Positions 12,001 through 33,000 of a DNA stretch of 64,000 bases are shown piece by piece. Position 1 is the stretch's first letter, and every line of letters begins with the position of its first letter. A program made the position numbers. Location: contig CAYXJN010000004.1 in NCBI GenBank assembly GCA_964464605.1, positions 1-64,000 on the forward strand, in the 5' to 3' direction. This DNA is from an uncultured Ignavibacteriales bacterium (GTDB lineage: Bacteria > Zixibacteria > MSB-5A5 > GN15 > FEB-12).

Positions 12001-15000
12001 CCCCGTCGTGTCTATACGAATACACATTTCGAATACATCGGCCGTGTTGCTGAGGCGATTACCGCGCGGAAGAAAAATATCAATGGCTACAAAATCACCC
12101 GTCAGGCGGAATTGCTGAGGCATTTTACCTGTGATTTAGCACCATTGGCAGCGAATGCAGTATCATCGCATGCGTAAGAGGCTTCTTTTCGGTTTGCTTT
12201 TGCTTGGCCTCGTCGCGTTTGGCGGATGCAGTTCAATCAAAATTGAAACCGGAGAAACACCGGAAGAGAAAAACGAATCGACGCAGGAACAGGCGCGGCA
12301 GTTTCGCGTTCGGTGGTCCTCCGATTTTGAACGTGCATCGGAACTGAGAAAAGTTGAATTGCTCATAGCCCATGTTCAGCGGATGGAAAACTGGTATCAA
12401 CAGCTTGGTGATACGCTCACGCATCGCTGGCAACAGGGGAACATCGGACGGGGAGAACCGATTAGTGCAAGTGAGATGAGTCAGATTGTCGAAAACTCAC
12501 TCGCGCCGCATAAGCCGATGTTAAACGCATGGGATGAGATGATCGAGTACGGCGTGCGGAGAATCAGTGAATTGAAATACTTCGCGCCCGATGTGCTCAC
12601 GCAGATTGATGCTTTGGTCGATCAGTTTTACAAATTCAGCAGCGTGGTCAGATATCCGAGCGGTGAATTCGTCGATTACGACCAGAAGATCCGGATCGAA
12701 GCACAGGATTTTGACGGTAAAATGACCGATTTACAAACCTGGCTTAAAACCCAGTAACTACGAATATGTGAATCTGGTTTCACCTATTGGCTGTGAAATT
12801 GAGATTTTACATTTGAGAGTCTCAAACGTCTTTTCCCTAAGGTCCTACTAAGCTGTTACAAAACAATAAATTACATATTCGTCTCATCCTGACCGCCTGC
12901 TTGGCTGAGTTTTTGCCGGGTAAAAGCGGGAATGAGTCCGGCTGCACTTGACTATTTAGCCGGAACTTTATAGATTCAAACGAGTTAAACAGTTGTCACC
13001 CCTTTTGGAGGATCTCTATAGACCCACAGTTCACGAGTGATTGATGTAAGGCAACAAGCCATAACGCTGAAAGGCTGACTCGTACCCTGTGAGTTTATCT
13101 CGCGCAGTTGTTGAGACTGCGTTTTTCCAATCAGCTTCGTATTCATTACTGCTGCCATTTGCATTGGCGGCCGGGATGAGTTTTCTCTGTTTTGCGGATG
13201 CCCACGCTGCCGTAAAAGAGCCGGTTACCGTTTTGTCGTCAACTGCAGACGGCTTCAGTGCTCGCGTTGCTATCGACTTTTCGAAATTAGAATGGGCGCA
13301 GGCTACTGACTCATTGCTCGCCGGATTTTACACAATTCAAGTCGGCATCCCATATGGCGCGACGGTACAATTACTTTCCGCACGTGGTGTGGCTGAAGCT
13401 ACTTTCAATCAGATACCAAACGTATTTCCGAATCAAAAACTCGCGCCGATGGAACTGGTGAAAGTCGGCCGTCCAATCGTTACCCGCGGTCGCACGACTG
13501 TTGGGGTGCGAATCTATCCGGTGCAGAACAAAACCTGTTATCAGTCAGTTGAGTTTTCACTCCGCTTTGTCGGTGGTGAAAAGACGTATAGCGAACTGCA
13601 GCCGGATGGCCGCTTCGATCGGATGTACGATGCCGCTGTTGCCAATCATGCTGAAGCGAAAGCATGGCTTGCCCCTGTTGCACAGCCGACTGCCGATGCG
13701 AACGCAGTCGGTGAGTTTTCCAACTCTACGATCTGGTGTAAAGCGAAAATCGGTACGACCGGTATTTACCGGATTACCGGGGCGCAGTTGAACGGAATCG
13801 GTATTAACGTGACCAATTTACGGTCTGACTCGGTTCGTGTCTTTTCCGGTTCCGGGTTGCCGCTACCGGTACATAATGATTCCGCCCGTCCCGCACTTGA
13901 AGAATTAGCAATTCAGATTCAGGATGGCGGTGATGGATTTTTCGGTGCGAATGATACCCTGTTGTTTTTCGGTGAATCAGTCGACCGGTATACCTATTCC
14001 CAAACCGGCGCAGCACATTTCGTGAGTAATCCGTATATCGATCAGAATGTGTATTGGATAGCGATTGGCGGAACGTATGTAACAGCGCCACGACGCATGA
14101 GTTCAGTCGACGGAACACCCAGTGGTATCGTTGATACGACGATTACTACATTCACCCGCTACGCTCACGCCGGACAAAATACACTGCTTCGCCGTTACTA
14201 CGATGGAGAAATACCGGAGTATTACACTTGGTATTGGTCGAGTGACCGGAACTTCAGTTTCTTTATCGCAACGCCCGGTTATATCACTGGCGACACGGCG
14301 CAGTTGTTTTTCTACGGACAAACATTTGACACTTCCGGTACCGGACCGCAAACCGGTTTTATGAATATGCGCGTGAACGGTGTTTCCGGATTGAACAAGA
14401 ATTGCTCGATCGATTCCTGCTATTTTCGCAGCAATCAACTGCGCGATGGGTTAAGCACGATCGATTTAACTCTGTTCCCGATTGCCTACGCGCCCGGCTA
14501 TTTCGATTTTGTCGATATCCGCTACCGCAGCCGCTTGACCCCGGCCAATAACCAGCTCGATATGCAGTTTGCGCCGTTCACTGGCATCGCCAACGTTCAG
14601 ATAACCGATAACATGACCGGTACCGCCCGAGTCTGGGATGTGACCGATGGCCACGCACCGGTTAACGTTACGAATTTCACCCGCTCTGCCGGTACGCTTT
14701 CATACAATTACGCGCTTGCTTCGACTGCGATGACCCGAATGTACACCGCGACCAGTGCCGCATTGTTAGCGCCGTTGTCACTTCAGCAGGTGCAGCCGAC
14801 AGATCTTCGCGCAAACAGTTCGCAAACAGATTTACTGATTGTAACGCCCCTTAATTTGCAGAATGCGGTCAATGAATATGTCACGCTGAAAGAACAGGAG
14901 GGGGCTTCAGTCACTGTCGCGACGATTGAAAATATCATGGATAATTTCGGTTGGGGGCTGTATGACCCGACTGCGATTCGTGATTTCCTGAAATATTCGT

Positions 15001-30000: not shown

Positions 30001-33000
30001 GCTACAAATCCGTATCAAACCCTTGGTATCGACTTCGGTGCAGTCTGGTCACACACTAATTCCCGTTTATTGCCAACGCGGGGATATCGCCTCAATACAT
30101 CAGTTGCCGGAGTATGGCGTACGTATCAGCAGGGTGCAGATAGTTCAGCGATGAATGGCCGTTCATTCACCGATGTACGTTTGCATACCTCATTTGAATA
30201 TTATCAACCTGTTATTGCATCGCTTGGTGTAGCATCAGCGATTCGCTATTTCGGGTTGGAATCATCTGAAAACCTACCGCCAATTTCTGAACTCTTTTTA
30301 ATCGGTGGTCCGGGTACGTTGCGCGGCTGGAATCAGGATCAGTTTTCAGCAATTCGCTCCGCGACATTTTCATTCGAACCACGTTTGCATTTCTCCGGCG
30401 GGTATCTGCATCTGTTCTATGATGGCGGCTGGCTGCAAAACCGGGAAATGCGAAATGGAAAAACGGCGATGCGTGAAACCTATCATGACGGTTTTGGTTT
30501 TGGACTGTTTTTGCTGAACGGTCAAAAAGGACTTTCGCTTAGTTTAGGCTGGAACAAAACGCTGCGATGTAATGACCCGCTTGTCGGATTGTCACTCAGC
30601 ACGGACTTATAAATTGACCCGTATGCTATTCTGCTCTATTCTTTCCTGATGGGGAACTTTACCTCCTTTTTCCAATTGATTCGTGTCATCAATTGCCTGA
30701 TTGCCGCCGCTGGTGTGGTAGTCGGCTCCTGGCTGACCGGATTTACGATTCAGTATTATGAAATCGTTGTAACGGCGATAGCCACATTCTGTATCTGCGC
30801 CGCCGGAAACGTGATGAACGACCTGATCGATATTCCGGTCGACCGGATTAGCCATCCAAATCGGGCTTTAGTGTGCGGAACTGTTTCCATGAAAACGGCC
30901 AGAGTGTACGCGGCTTTGTTCGCAGTTGTCGCCATTTGTCTTGCGCTAACCGTCAACCGGGCGGTGGTGGCATTGGCGGTTACGGCCGCAGTTCTTTTGG
31001 CACTGTATAATCTCTTTTTGAAAAATCAGCCGTTTATCGGGAATCTTGTTGTGGCGCTTTTGGCGGGACTAACGCTGGTTACCGGGGCGGCAGCGGTCGA
31101 TCCGGCGGTTGAGTTTTCATTGCCGAATCCGCTCTTGCCTGCCTGGCTTGCGTTGTTGATTCACCTTTTGCGGGAGATTGTCAAAGATATTGCGGACAGG
31201 GAAGGGGACGCGCTGGTCAAGGCGCGTACATTGCCGATTGTCCTTGGGGTAAAACAGTCGTTAAATATTGTTAATGCTATTCTCTTTCTGCTTATTCTCA
31301 GTACCTTACTTCCCGTGCTGTTTGGATGGTATACGACTGTTTGGTATTTGGTTTTGGTGCTCTTGCTCGTTGACCTTCCGCTTGTCCTGCTTGTAGTTTC
31401 GTGCCGAAAAGAGCCATCGCCACAGCGTGTCCGGCGGCTTTCTTCCGGCCTAAAAATGGCGATGGTTGCCGGGATGATTGCGCTATTAACTGCCTGAGCG
31501 AAACGGAAACAATCCGGACAGATAGCAGTATAAAAAACCGTTGTCCATACACTGATGGAGAAATGAAAAAACAGCCCTTTTACATAGTCGTTTGTCTTAC
31601 TGTTTTGTGTGCGGTAACCCTGTTTGCACAGACAGGTGGGCAGGGGATAACGGTCAGCCAATCCATTGACCGGACAACGATCCCGTTTGAAGAAACAGTC
31701 ACAGTCGACATTACCCTTACCTGGCAGGGTTCGCAATTCAGTTACCGGTTCGACCGTCCGCTGAATCCGCAGCTTGATCGCCTGAAAATCAAAGAATATT
31801 CATCGACCGTCAGTTCATCGGGGAGCGGTGAAACGGAAATGACGACCAAACGGTTTCGCCTGACACTTTCGCCGACTTCAGCAGGGAAAGCGGAGATTTC
31901 GCCGATTACCATCGCCTATCTGAAATGGCCGGACAGTTTGTCCGGCGAAGTGGTCACCGAAGCAATGAGCGTTTCTATTGCCGATCCGAAACCTGCAGCG
32001 GAAAATGAACCGATGCGGTTGGTGGATTGGGTAAAAATTATCGCCGCGATAGCGGCGCCGCTTGTGCTCATTGTTGCGTTTTATCTGCGTCGCAAACGGC
32101 AAAAAAATCAGATAGTGAAAATTACCCCGAAAGAAAAATTCCTGGCCGATTTGACCGTTTTGAAAAATGACGCAAGAAGTGATTTGAAAAAATTTCAGAC
32201 CGGATTGTATAAATTACTCAGTGATTATTTGACCGACCGGTACTATCTCACCACTGACCGGTTGATGAATGAGGATATCCCTACGCTGCTTGCGCAGACT
32301 GATTTGTCCGAATCGCAGCGTCAGCGGATGGGAAGTTGGTTTGAACGGGCGAGGGCCGACCGATTTCGGCCGGTGGATGCACAGCCAGGGGAGACGATTC
32401 GTTTAGAATCCGAGATCCGGCAGTTTTTTGAGCAGTTAACGAAATAATGATATCTGGAGAAACTCATGTACGCGAACATTGAACAGATTCAGGCTTCGGT
32501 CGAAAAAGAATCTGCGCTTATCACCCGGCTGACCCAGCAGGTCAGTTCGGTGATTGTGGGGCAGAAGTATTTGATCGACCGCCTGATGATCGGCATGCTG
32601 GCGAATGGACACTTGCTTATTGAAGGTGTCCCGGGGCTGGCGAAAACGCTTTCGGTAAAAACGCTGTCGGATGCAATTCAGGCAAAATTCCAGCGCCTGC
32701 AATTCACGCCCGATTTGCTGCCGGCCGATTTGATCGGAACGCTGGTGTACAATCCGCAAACGGCGCAGTTCACGGTGAAAAAAGGTCCCGTTTTTGCCAA
32801 TATAATTTTGGCGGATGAAATTAACCGCGCTCCCGCCAAAGTGCAGTCGGCGCTTTTGGAAGCGATGCAGGAACGGCAGGTCACGATCGGTGATACGACG
32901 TACAAATTAGAAGATCCGTTTTTGGTGCTCGCGACGCAGAATCCGATCGAGCAGGAAGGCACCTACCCGCTTCCGGAAGCGCAGGTGGACCGATTCATTA

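Follow-up and report, generated by a model that had tools for sequence, protein, structure and literature searches.

A probable GldKLMN-less type IX secretion system in an uncultured Zixibacteria bacterium

A proton-driven motor and ring are thought to power type IX secretion systems (T9SS). The Zixibacteria genome analyzed here encodes the outer-membrane half of a T9SS together with its cargo (PorU, the PorV family, SprA, proteins with the type A C-terminal sorting domain (CTD) and PorX were all matched), and no GldK, GldL, GldM or GldN was found over model cut-offs. Both observations had been made in a preliminary description of this DNA, and both held, the second now with working positive controls from Bacteroidota. 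We therefore consider it probable that the genome encodes a GldKLMN-less form of the T9SS, which means that either the motor is dispensable for type IX secretion here or something else does its work. The genome had been called complete; the assembly was estimated to be 100% complete and 0% contaminated but consists of 18 contigs (2.82 Mb) and is not closed.

In the window (the whole stretch of 64,000 nt that was analyzed, on contig C4), eight plus-strand ORFs were packed at 13089-30612 with gaps or overlaps of -83 to +19 nt, and inclusion of the UbiA gene gave a PorU operon of nine genes at 13089-31497 (Table 1). An operon span of 13176-30612 had been given earlier; its end agreed with that of the eight-ORF run, but the longest PorU ORF opened at 13089. 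The gene order was kept across the phylum, as had been proposed: 15 loci belonging to 10 families had it, with protein identities of 19-50%.

Table 1. T9SS-related features of the window.
Feature	Coordinates	Strand	Model or remark
PorU, T9SS sortase (C25 peptidase, own C-terminal Ig-like domain)	13089..17006	+	alternative ATG 13176
PorV-family outer-membrane barrel, 886 aa	17023..19683	+	NF033709
M6-like (probably inactive) metalloprotease, FG-GAP propeller, weak C-terminal type A CTD, 1091 aa	19703..22978	+	
Long DUF5683-like protein a, 314 aa	22975..23919	+	PF18935
Long DUF5683-like protein b, 272 aa, paralogue of protein a	23919..24737	+	
NHL-repeat beta-propeller, probably lipoprotein, 330 aa	24746..25738	+	Pfam NHL
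Giant outer-membrane beta-barrel protein, no known family, 1111 aa	25656..28991	+	predicted structure
Omp85/BamA-like barrel-assembly protein, 566 aa	28912..30612	+	Pfam Omp85
UbiA-family prenyltransferase, integral membrane, last gene of the cluster	30649..31497	+	Pfam UbiA
SprA/Sov, T9SS translocon barrel, 2042 aa	51041..57169	+	TIGR04189; between murB and selA

The sortase scored 711 bits against the PorU model NF033707 (cut-off 420) but 145 bits against the PorU2 model NF052324 (cut-off 450), showing it to be a true PorU. Peptidase_C25 was matched at residues 583-952 (273 bits), His820 and Cys855 were invariant in all 36 aligned PorU sequences, and the gene was present in single copy over cut-off in each of the 61 high-quality Zixibacteria genomes searched. 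The PorV-family gene adjoined PorU in 14 of the 15 loci. Its product matched NF033709 at residues 620-885 (194 bits; cut-off 90) and Pfam PorV (41 bits); residues 30-67 matched the N-terminus of the PorV2 model NF052325, against which the protein scored 46 bits (cut-off 325). Between the first strand and the remaining barrel lies an insertion of ~550 aa, for which no look-alike was found in the Atlas. The M6-like gene, found in 15/15 loci, was best matched by NF052323 (T9SS-dependent M6-like inactivated metalloprotease; 268 bits, below the cut-off of 600), carried FG-GAP repeats according to Pfam, and scored 21.5 bits against the CTD model TIGR04183 (26.1 bits in a six-frame search).

The two DUF5683-like proteins, each encoded in 14/15 loci, share a PG.G..Y motif in alignment and scored 34 bits (protein a; cut-off 26.7) and 17 bits (protein b, below cut-off) against PF18935. 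Protein a begins with a signal peptide and ends in Phe; its AF2 model (pLDDT 74.6) consists of a long helical hairpin followed by a C-terminal beta hairpin, and neither Foldseek nor VIA-align gave a specific fold match for it. The NHL protein (13/15 loci) scored 63 bits against its Pfam family, with an N-terminus that reads ...GFLCAC. The 1111-aa protein (13/15 loci) represents the longest ORF, an ATG at 25722 giving 1089 aa; it fell into no Pfam family, matched SprA locally with 19 bits and had an invariant C-terminal Phe. Its AF2 model was all-beta (pLDDT 72.6), that of a generic outer-membrane barrel, and Foldseek and VIA matched it to nothing more specific than large barrels, one of them SprA. 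The Omp85-like protein scored 50 bits against Pfam Omp85 and 60 bits, below cut-off, against the BamA model TIGR03303; its gene was found by BLAST in 11/15 loci, and two others had a similar-sized unassigned ORF at the same spot. Finally, the UbiA-family protein scored 130 bits and its gene lay downstream in 14/15 loci. From these sequences we infer that the nine-gene operon is an outer-membrane attachment and accessory module, with UbiA as a putative member.

The operon was also considered as the missing energiser and was rejected. A signal-peptide-like hydrophobic segment opens all eight products of the packed ORFs, and none of the eight shows a motor-like inner-membrane topology; the 1111-aa protein and DUF5683-like protein a were modeled as a barrel and a helical hairpin, respectively. 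With export signals at the N-termini of its products, the operon cannot supply the inner-membrane motor itself.

The SprA of the window scored 447.6 + 115.1 bits against TIGR04189 (563.6 bits in frame; cut-off 200) and 75 bits against SprA_N. The latter domain was found in 61/61 Zixibacteria searched, in ORFs of ~2000 aa, at 45-142 bits compared with 450-650 bits in Bacteroidia. The PorX regulator reported earlier corresponds to a homologue at C7:120552-122111 (502.6 bits). Expansion of the PorV family was likewise borne out, although jackhmmer recovered 11 paralogues among 2539 ORF calls in place of ten, and some of these adjoin CTD genes. The cargo set stood as well, with 28 six-frame matches over the TIGR04183 cut-off rather than 25 proteins; 27 were at the C-terminus of their ORF, and Pfam Por_Secre_tail was at the extreme C-terminus of 22 of the 25 cargo ORFs scanned. 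These 22 included subtilases, peptidases of the M6 and C25 families, and cohesin, BACON and giant Ig/PKD proteins. The first domain of Plug (PF17116) was not found in the genome, which may point to a different gating mechanism or to a system that is not equivalent.

The joint absence of Plug, motor and ring would also fit a reading in which SprA, PorV and PorU are relics or have another envelope function, the CTD proteins leaving by another route or staying periplasmic. We regard this as very improbable: SprA, like PorU, was single copy in 61/61 genomes, the operon is conserved and the His/Cys pair intact, the 28 CTD genes encode domains typical of extracellular cargo, PorV paralogues adjoin some of them, and relics would not persist phylum-wide at the identities observed.

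Searches for the motor and ring in the genome yielded no GldM match at E≤10, no GldN, and best scores of 15.5 bits for GldL (cut-off 68.3) and 16.9 bits for GldK (cut-off 350). The phylum set comprised 285 Zixibacteria genomes, 198 of them ≥90% complete. GldM (E≤1e-3) and GldN were found in 0/285; GldL was over cut-off in 0/285, with chance-level matches of ~20 bits in four, and GldK in 0/285, with generic FGE-sulfatase proteins in 80 (best 110 bits). The earlier count of 0/285 for GldL and GldM is thus confirmed and extended to the other two. Positive controls had been missing from the earlier searches; here, the same models matched five of five named Bacteroidota, GldM, GldL and GldN over cut-off in every one and GldK over cut-off in one piece in three, the remaining two genes being split. 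Our own HMMs (built from five GldL, five GldM and three GldN sequences) scored ≤9.5 bits on the 2539 ORFs, hhalign of the operon families with GldL, GldM and GldN gave probabilities of ≤0.1%, and a topology scan of the genome for adjacent genes encoding a 2-TM and a 1-TM protein turned up nothing but proteins that are known or secreted. Neither the genome nor the phylum has a detectable homologue of PorL/M, the motor, or of PorK/N, the ring.

The T9SS models are mainly built on Bacteroidia, and short proteins, GldL for one, could escape detection if they had diverged as far as SprA_N. GldL is moreover largely low-complexity, other T9SS models, SprA_N for example, lose most of their score in Zixibacteria, and Foldseek ranked the GldM periplasmic domain (7sb2_B) first for the DUF5683-like model. 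That GldL and GldM, and with them GldK and GldN, are present but diverged beyond the reach of sequence models is nevertheless quite improbable. The 7sb2_B row was non-significant (E 0.16, TM 0.16, rmsd 21 Å), and the likeness disappeared in VIA-align (generic coiled coils, Z≤7.6) and in hhalign. In addition, all four proteins are missing together across the 285 genomes, no adjacent 2-TM and 1-TM pair of unknown family emerged from the topology scan, and in a sample of 101 Bacteroidota-phylum genomes GldL and GldM co-occurred perfectly in 25 and were both absent from the other 76.

The same sample showed that the motor-less state is not peculiar to Zixibacteria. PorU was over cut-off in 72/101 and SprA_N present in 80/101; 53 genomes had both without GldL or GldM, and GldN was found in none of five of these that were checked. 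At least 30 of the 53 had a long DUF5683-like gene ≤12 kb downstream of PorU, as opposed to 0/19 GldLM-positive, PorU-positive genomes; because the sampled genomes are related to each other, neither 53 nor 30 is a number of independent events. Among 16 informative GldLM-less loci, PorV adjoined PorU in 15, the M6-like gene was present in 12 and the DUF5683-like gene in 10, whereas two Bacteroidia control loci had PorU-PorV only. A PorU-PorV-M6-like-long-DUF5683 cassette is common to motor-less lineages outside Bacteroidia and absent in Bacteroidia. Since the same motor-less configuration and cassette recur in many lineages, the SprA/PorV/PorU module is a widely distributed core and GldKLMN a lineage-restricted addition. 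In the literature, the sole mention that we found of such a state was a one-sentence remark of 2024 in PMC11705866, in the portion available, that PorV, SprA and Plug are all that Ignavibacterium and Melioribacter have; no paper was found that pairs Zixibacteria with type IX secretion.

By homology, cargo with a type A CTD would cross the inner membrane by Sec, be picked up at the SprA barrel by a carrier of the PorV family, and then be cleaved or moved onto the cell surface by PorU. According to the accessible text of PMC10994853, substrate loading is energy-free and release is the energy-requiring step that needs the motor in Flavobacterium, and the indispensable parts in Flavobacterium and Porphyromonas include the motor, SprE/PorW, SkpA and PorD. 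For release in the Zixibacterium we tentatively favor, at slightly under an even chance, the absence of a dedicated trans-envelope motor, direction coming from carrier binding, irreversible cleavage or transfer by PorU, and exchange among PorV paralogues. Borrowing of a general PMF transducer (ExbB-ExbD-TonB, TolQR or a second MotAB pair) is a somewhat less probable but real possibility; an unrecognisable GldLM analogue is improbable, and there is only a very slight chance that the system does not secrete.

Four MotA/ExbB/TolQ-family units were found in the genome: ExbB-ExbD-ExbD and then four TonB_C proteins in a row (C4:190187-195041), TolQRA-TolB-Pal, MotAB within the flagellar cluster, and a second, orphan MotA/MotB pair (C3:195110-196854). 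Given that release is energy-dependent in Flavobacterium, and that GldLM itself forms a 5:2 unit (PMC11205867, as excerpted), one of the four could power SprA/PorV through TonB- or TolA-like arms in place of GldLM. We consider this specific replacement rather unlikely, as the units are ordinary in composition, have their usual partners and have no T9SS genes near them. Around SprA in 20 GldLM-less genomes lay PorX (at 5 loci), LptF/LptG (at 9) and housekeeping genes; none of these surroundings contained a unit of this kind. No MotA/ExbB/TolQ unit or other candidate energiser was found linked to any T9SS gene, and no GldLM-like pair was found.

Compared with the canonical T9SS of two members of the class Bacteroidia, Flavobacterium johnsoniae and Porphyromonas gingivalis, the GldKLMN-less system shares SprA/Sov, PorV carriers, PorU, type A CTD cargo and PorX, all above curated cut-offs, but is without GldK/L/M/N (PorK/L/M/N) and the Plug first domain. 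Unlike canonical hosts, this Zixibacterium has flagellar genes, and its operon PorV differs by the long insertion; the Bacteroidia control loci, in turn, were without the M6-like, long DUF5683, NHL, giant-barrel and Omp85 genes. Ignavibacterium and Melioribacter resemble it in having a translocon without other T9SS proteins, but they have Plug, in the same portion of PMC11705866, whereas the Zixibacterium has PorU as well. The GldLM-less Bacteroidota-phylum genomes (e.g., G316, G345, G308) share PorU, SprA and the PorU-PorV-M6-like-DUF5683-like order. Their PorV, however, is of normal size (~380 aa), no NHL, giant barrel, Omp85 or UbiA genes lie at PorU, and a ~1100-aa Peptidase_MA_2/PD40 protein is encoded between the M6-like and DUF5683 genes. 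Some of them have Plug (L162), and many have an additional PorU2-like protein of 1500-1900 aa.

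The PorU operon comprises eight plus-strand ORFs in the interval named by the preliminary description, spaced by -83 to +19 nt (negative values being overlaps), followed by a ninth gene for a UbiA-family prenyltransferase (see the table). The preliminary description had started PorU at an alternative ATG (position 13176). His820 and Cys855 of PorU, which we take to be the catalytic dyad of the C25 family, were invariant in 36 of 36 sequences. In the PorV-family protein encoded next, a PorV-like first strand (residues 30-67) is split from the barrel by ~550 residues. This insertion (residues about 70-620) matched no Pfam family and gave only weak S1/LysM-like rows, and an Atlas search with it returned no usable match and no look-alike. 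In relatives the whole protein measures 857-1056 aa; it has the normal length of ~380 aa in those genomes of the Bacteroidota phylum that have PorU and SprA without detectable GldL and GldM (hereafter GldLM-less). Within the operon, the PorV-family protein alone was matched by the PorQ model, at 75 bits versus a cut-off of 220. A weak C-terminal sorting domain (CTD) was found at the C-terminus of the M6-like/FG-GAP protein, and of the two DUF5683-like paralogues the longer, DUF5683a, reached the gathering score of PF18935 while the shorter, DUF5683b, fell below it. All eight products from PorU through the Omp85-like protein begin with a signal-peptide-like hydrophobic segment; the UbiA-family protein is the sole integral inner-membrane protein of the cluster. 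A promoter and terminator scan of 12500-32400 gave signals not above those of shuffled sequence. The sequencing runs listed as holding the operon are DNA from bioreactor, sludge, aquaculture and rhizosphere metagenomes, and none is RNA.

Type IX secretion system (T9SS) components and MotA/ExbB/TolQ-type units of the genome. Positions without a contig name refer to contig C4; L numbers are fetched loci.
Feature	Position	Strand	Evidence or context
PorU	13089-17006	+	NF033707, 711 bits (cut-off 420); Peptidase_C25, 273 bits
PorV-family protein, 886 aa	17023-19683	+	NF033709, 194 bits, barrel residues 620-885
M6-like/FG-GAP protein, 1091 aa		+	best match 'T9SS-dependent M6-like inactivated metalloprotease', 268 bits (cut-off 600)
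DUF5683-like paralogues, 314 and 272 aa		+	PF18935, 34.3 and 17.4 bits (cut-off 26.7)
NHL-repeat protein, 330 aa		+	
1111-aa protein		+	no family
Omp85-like protein, 566 aa		+	
UbiA-family prenyltransferase	30649-31497	+	ninth gene, 36 nt past the Omp85-like gene
SprA/Sov translocon barrel, 2042 aa	51041-57169		TIGR04189, 563.6 bits in frame (cut-off 200)
MotAB unit	C6:237907-242765 (L133)		inside flagellar cluster
TolQRA-TolB-Pal-YbgF unit			
ExbB-ExbD-ExbD unit	C4:190187-195041 (L135)		followed by four consecutive TonB_C proteins
Second MotA/MotB pair	C3:195110-196854 (L136)		orphan, beside mfd

The claim that this operon is conserved across the phylum was borne out by 15 PorU regions from ten Zixibacteria families, in which the order PorU, PorV-like, M6-like, DUF5683a, DUF5683b, NHL, giant barrel (the 1111-aa protein), Omp85 and UbiA is kept. 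PorU and the M6-like gene were present in all 15 loci, the PorV-like, DUF5683a, DUF5683b and UbiA genes in 14 each, and the NHL and giant-barrel genes in 13 each; Omp85 was found in 11, and at two further loci its position is taken by an unassigned ORF of similar length. Since this synteny is kept although the proteins are only 19-50% identical to those of the window, it argues for the operon being a working unit in Zixibacteria. PorU was over cut-off and in single copy in all 61 high-quality Zixibacteria genomes searched, each of which also carried SprA_N.

The genome had been called complete; it is estimated to be 100% complete, but its 2.82 Mb lie in 18 contigs and it is not closed. SprA, PorU and PorX were found as described, with SprA between murB and selA and the PorX homologue at C7:120552-122111. 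Cargo and carriers were likewise present, although the counts differed from those given previously: 28 six-frame matches to the type A CTD model were over cut-off (27 of them at the C-terminus of an ORF) instead of 25 proteins, and jackhmmer recovered 11 PorV-like barrels among the 2539 ORFs called, several of them adjoining CTD genes, instead of ten PorV/PorQ paralogues. Pfam Por_Secre_tail was matched in 22 of the 25 cargo ORFs scanned. Peptidases among the cargo include two subtilases, one of the M6 family and a second of the C25 family; cohesin and BACON proteins also occur, as do Ig/PKD/cadherin giants of 3499 and 2277 aa. That such a set of genes is not a secretion system at all seems to us very improbable. 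The first domain of the Plug (PF17116) had no match in the genome at E<=0.1; in locus L162, a protein reaches 80 bits with this model.

In current models, the PorLM/GldLM motor and the PorKN ring belong to the core of the T9SS. The preliminary description had found no recognisable GldK, GldL, GldM or GldN here, and neither GldL nor GldM in 285 Zixibacteria genomes, but had lacked a positive control. In our searches of the genome, GldM gave no match at E<=10 and GldN nothing, and the best scores for GldL and GldK were 15.5 bits (cut-off 68) and 16.9 bits (cut-off 350). Among the 285 Zixibacteria genomes, 198 of them of high quality, none had GldM at E<=1e-3, none had GldN, and none had GldL or GldK over cut-off. 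Four showed GldL scores of ~20 bits, against the low-complexity tail, inside large unrelated ORFs, and 80, the present genome not among them, carried generic FGE-sulfatase proteins with up to 110 bits to GldK. The control was supplied by five named Bacteroidota genomes picked by a 16S probe: the same models, which derive mostly from Bacteroidia, detected GldM (243-481 bits), GldL and GldN in five of five and matched GldK in all five, three times over cut-off in one piece and twice as split genes. The absence of detectable GldL and GldM from the genome and the phylum was thus confirmed, and that of GldK and GldN was extended from the genome to all 285. In the two controls with split genes, gldK is broken into two or three parts that differ in reading frame (G033:C1:2410458-2411785 and G035:C1:1338223-1339533), and in the second of these gldN and gldL are split too, which may reflect sequencing error or pseudogenes.

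We also considered an analogue of GldLM that has become unrecognisable. Our own HMMs, built from five GldL, five GldM and three GldN sequences of the control genomes, reached no more than 9.5 bits in the 2539 ORFs, with nothing below E 0.1, and the DUF5683a, DUF5683b and giant-barrel families gave no match to GldL, GldM or GldN by hhalign. We regard such an analogue as improbable. A topology scan of the same ORFs for a two-TM protein beside a bitopic protein returned 26 candidates; the ones that had a partner were LpoB-like, NfeD/SPFH, epimerase, SurA/PpiD, TPM, TPR/SPOR, COX2/SCO1 or secreted unknowns, and they were rejected, hhalign probabilities to GldL/GldM being at most 2%.

The predicted structures of two operon proteins were examined with AF2. 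The model of DUF5683a (pLDDT 74.6) consists of a signal peptide, a helical hairpin whose two arms are each 40-50 residues long, and a beta hairpin at the C-terminus that ends in an invariant Phe. Its Atlas look-alikes were DUF5683 clusters of Zixibacteria and Ignavibacteriota and an unnamed cluster of Gemmatimonadota. The top Foldseek match was the periplasmic domain of GldM, at an E value of only 0.16 and a TM of 0.16, which we rejected as a chance match between long helices; VIA-align returned only generic coiled coils (Z<=7.6), and hhalign gave a probability of at most 0.1% for homology to GldL, GldM or GldN. Kinship of DUF5683a to GldM is therefore not claimed. The 1111-aa protein was modelled as a very large all-beta barrel (pLDDT 72.6) that resembles large outer-membrane barrels generally, with SprA among the Foldseek matches (TMq 0.25-0.27). 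In VIA, porins were listed without a clear leader, all at Z of about 16, and for this reason we do not claim a second translocon. Because the gene for the Omp85-like protein adjoins that for the modelled barrel, we read the pair as a putative dedicated barrel and its predicted insertase. Sequence-profile searches of the PDB with three alignments of operon families (A1, A2 and A3) yielded chance rows only.

We applied the same models to 101 genomes drawn evenly from the GTDB phylum to which the Bacteroidota controls belong. GldM was over cut-off in 25, and GldL in exactly those 25; PorU was over cut-off in 72, and SprA_N was present in 80. PorU and the motor occurred together in 19 genomes, and 53 combined PorU (750-1100 bits) with SprA_N, whose ORFs measure 2250-2750 aa, and had neither GldL nor GldM, figures that are counts and not independent events because the sampled genomes are related to each other. 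GldN was found in none of five such GldLM-less genomes checked. The motor-less state described for Zixibacteria is not confined to that phylum. In many GldLM-less genomes there are, in addition, proteins of 1500-1900 aa with scores of 110-280 bits to the initial two thirds of the PorU model (e.g., G382:C11:377531-379612 and G345:C13:34519-36735); these may represent 'PorU2'. Only such a PorU-like protein, and no true PorU, is encoded by two of the genomes that have the motor (G295 and G331).

Eighteen GldLM-less PorU regions of this sample were fetched, 16 of which were informative. PorU was followed by PorV in 15 of the 16 and then by an M6-like gene in 12; a DUF5683-like gene (290-334 aa) was present in ten, mostly behind a protein of ~1100 aa with Peptidase_MA_2/PD40 matches. 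In two control regions from Bacteroidia, PorU and PorV are followed by unrelated genes. The canonical form of DUF5683 (about 200 aa, 78-190 bits) occurs in 84 of the 101 genomes, including all motor-bearing ones and the Bacteroides control, which has no T9SS; hence DUF5683 proteins in general do not mark a T9SS. A weakly scoring long DUF5683 protein, encoded on the same strand within 12 kb downstream of PorU, was found in 30 or more of the 53 genomes without GldL and GldM and in none of the 19 motor-bearing, PorU-positive ones.

By homology, cargo bearing a CTD would leave the cytoplasm by Sec export, a PorV carrier would capture the CTD where SprA opens laterally, and PorU would cleave or transfer the cargo. 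According to PMC10994853, loading is energy-free in Flavobacterium and release of the carrier-substrate complex requires the motor; current models likewise place the energy-requiring step where this complex leaves SprA. As no motor was found here, release must be achieved otherwise. We consider it close to an even chance that there is no dedicated motor and that carrier exchange, together with the irreversible chemistry of PorU, acts as a ratchet, perhaps aided by the PorU-linked M6-like and DUF5683 proteins. Somewhat below even, we place a unit of the Ton, Tol or Mot type that has been borrowed to power release: the genome offers four MotA/ExbB/TolQ units (see the table), but none is close to PorU, to SprA or to any PorV paralogue, and neither in this genome nor in 20 GldLM-less genomes was such a unit or a motor-like pair found near SprA. 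In the ExbB-ExbD-ExbD locus, one of the four TonB C-terminal-domain proteins has two such domains, and upstream are genes for a TPR protein (687 aa) and for an unknown protein of 268 aa. Nine of the 20 GldLM-less genomes have LptF and LptG paired in divergent orientation upstream of SprA, and five have PorX directly downstream of it (L179-L185, L193 and L194); the other neighbours of SprA are housekeeping genes.

With the canonical T9SS the genome shares a translocon, carriers, a sortase, type A CTD cargo and a PorX regulator; it differs in having no detectable GldL/M motor, GldK/N ring or Plug first domain. Because the first set was found and the second was not, the system is, as judged from sequence, a T9SS variant rather than a canonical member. 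It is a tentative and rather doubtful idea that SprA, PorV and PorU, with the M6-like and long DUF5683 proteins, might form an autonomous, motor-free machine for secretion and attachment, the ancestral and most widespread form of the T9SS in the FCB group, to which GldKLMN would be a later addition of Bacteroidia outside the secretion mechanism proper. If so, GldKLMN would be tied to gliding and high-throughput release.

Motor and ring are thus missing from a whole phylum, and from about half of the sample of a neighbouring one, in which translocon, carriers, sortase and cargo genes by the dozen have been kept. Screens that demand gldKLMN would score such organisms as T9SS-negative and miss their predicted secreted proteases and adhesins. 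The purpose of the motor's energy becomes testable by comparison, since some relatives have been grown in culture; PMC11705866 names Ignavibacterium (I. album) and Melioribacter (M. roseus), and PMC6851124 reports cargo of Fibrobacter succinogenes. The PorU-linked M6-like and long DUF5683 genes are candidates for alternative release or attachment. A translocon without a motor has been touched on in print, in one sentence of PMC11705866. Literature searches found Zixibacteria and type IX secretion together in none of the papers covered, only passing mentions of DUF5683, and nothing relevant on partial, incomplete or minimal T9SS or on a lack of gldL, although supplements (such as PMC11705866 Fig. 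S3) may add taxa. As far as these searches show, the extent of the motor-less state in Zixibacteria and in about half of the neighbouring-phylum sample, the conserved nine-gene PorU operon, and the PorU-linked cassette by which lineages without the motor differ from those with it are new.

The pairing of PorU and SprA (13089-57169 in the window) is a long-range conserved synteny, the two genes lying 40-65 kb apart on one contig in many Zixibacteria (e.g., G071, G012, G091, G009, G145 and G281). Directly downstream of the PorU cluster is a Bat/MoxR-type operon (31401-40786) in the order BatD-like, MoxR AAA_3, DUF58, BatD-like, two VWA/BatA-like, TPR, BatD and TPR, and in some relatives a BatD-like gene and MoxR likewise lie 3' of UbiA. 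SprA is flanked by the selenocysteine genes selA and selB, and the window also holds bacillithiol-synthesis-like genes (BshC, a GT4 glycosyltransferase and a PIG-L deacetylase); together these two groups occupy 42983-46453 and 57187-60458.
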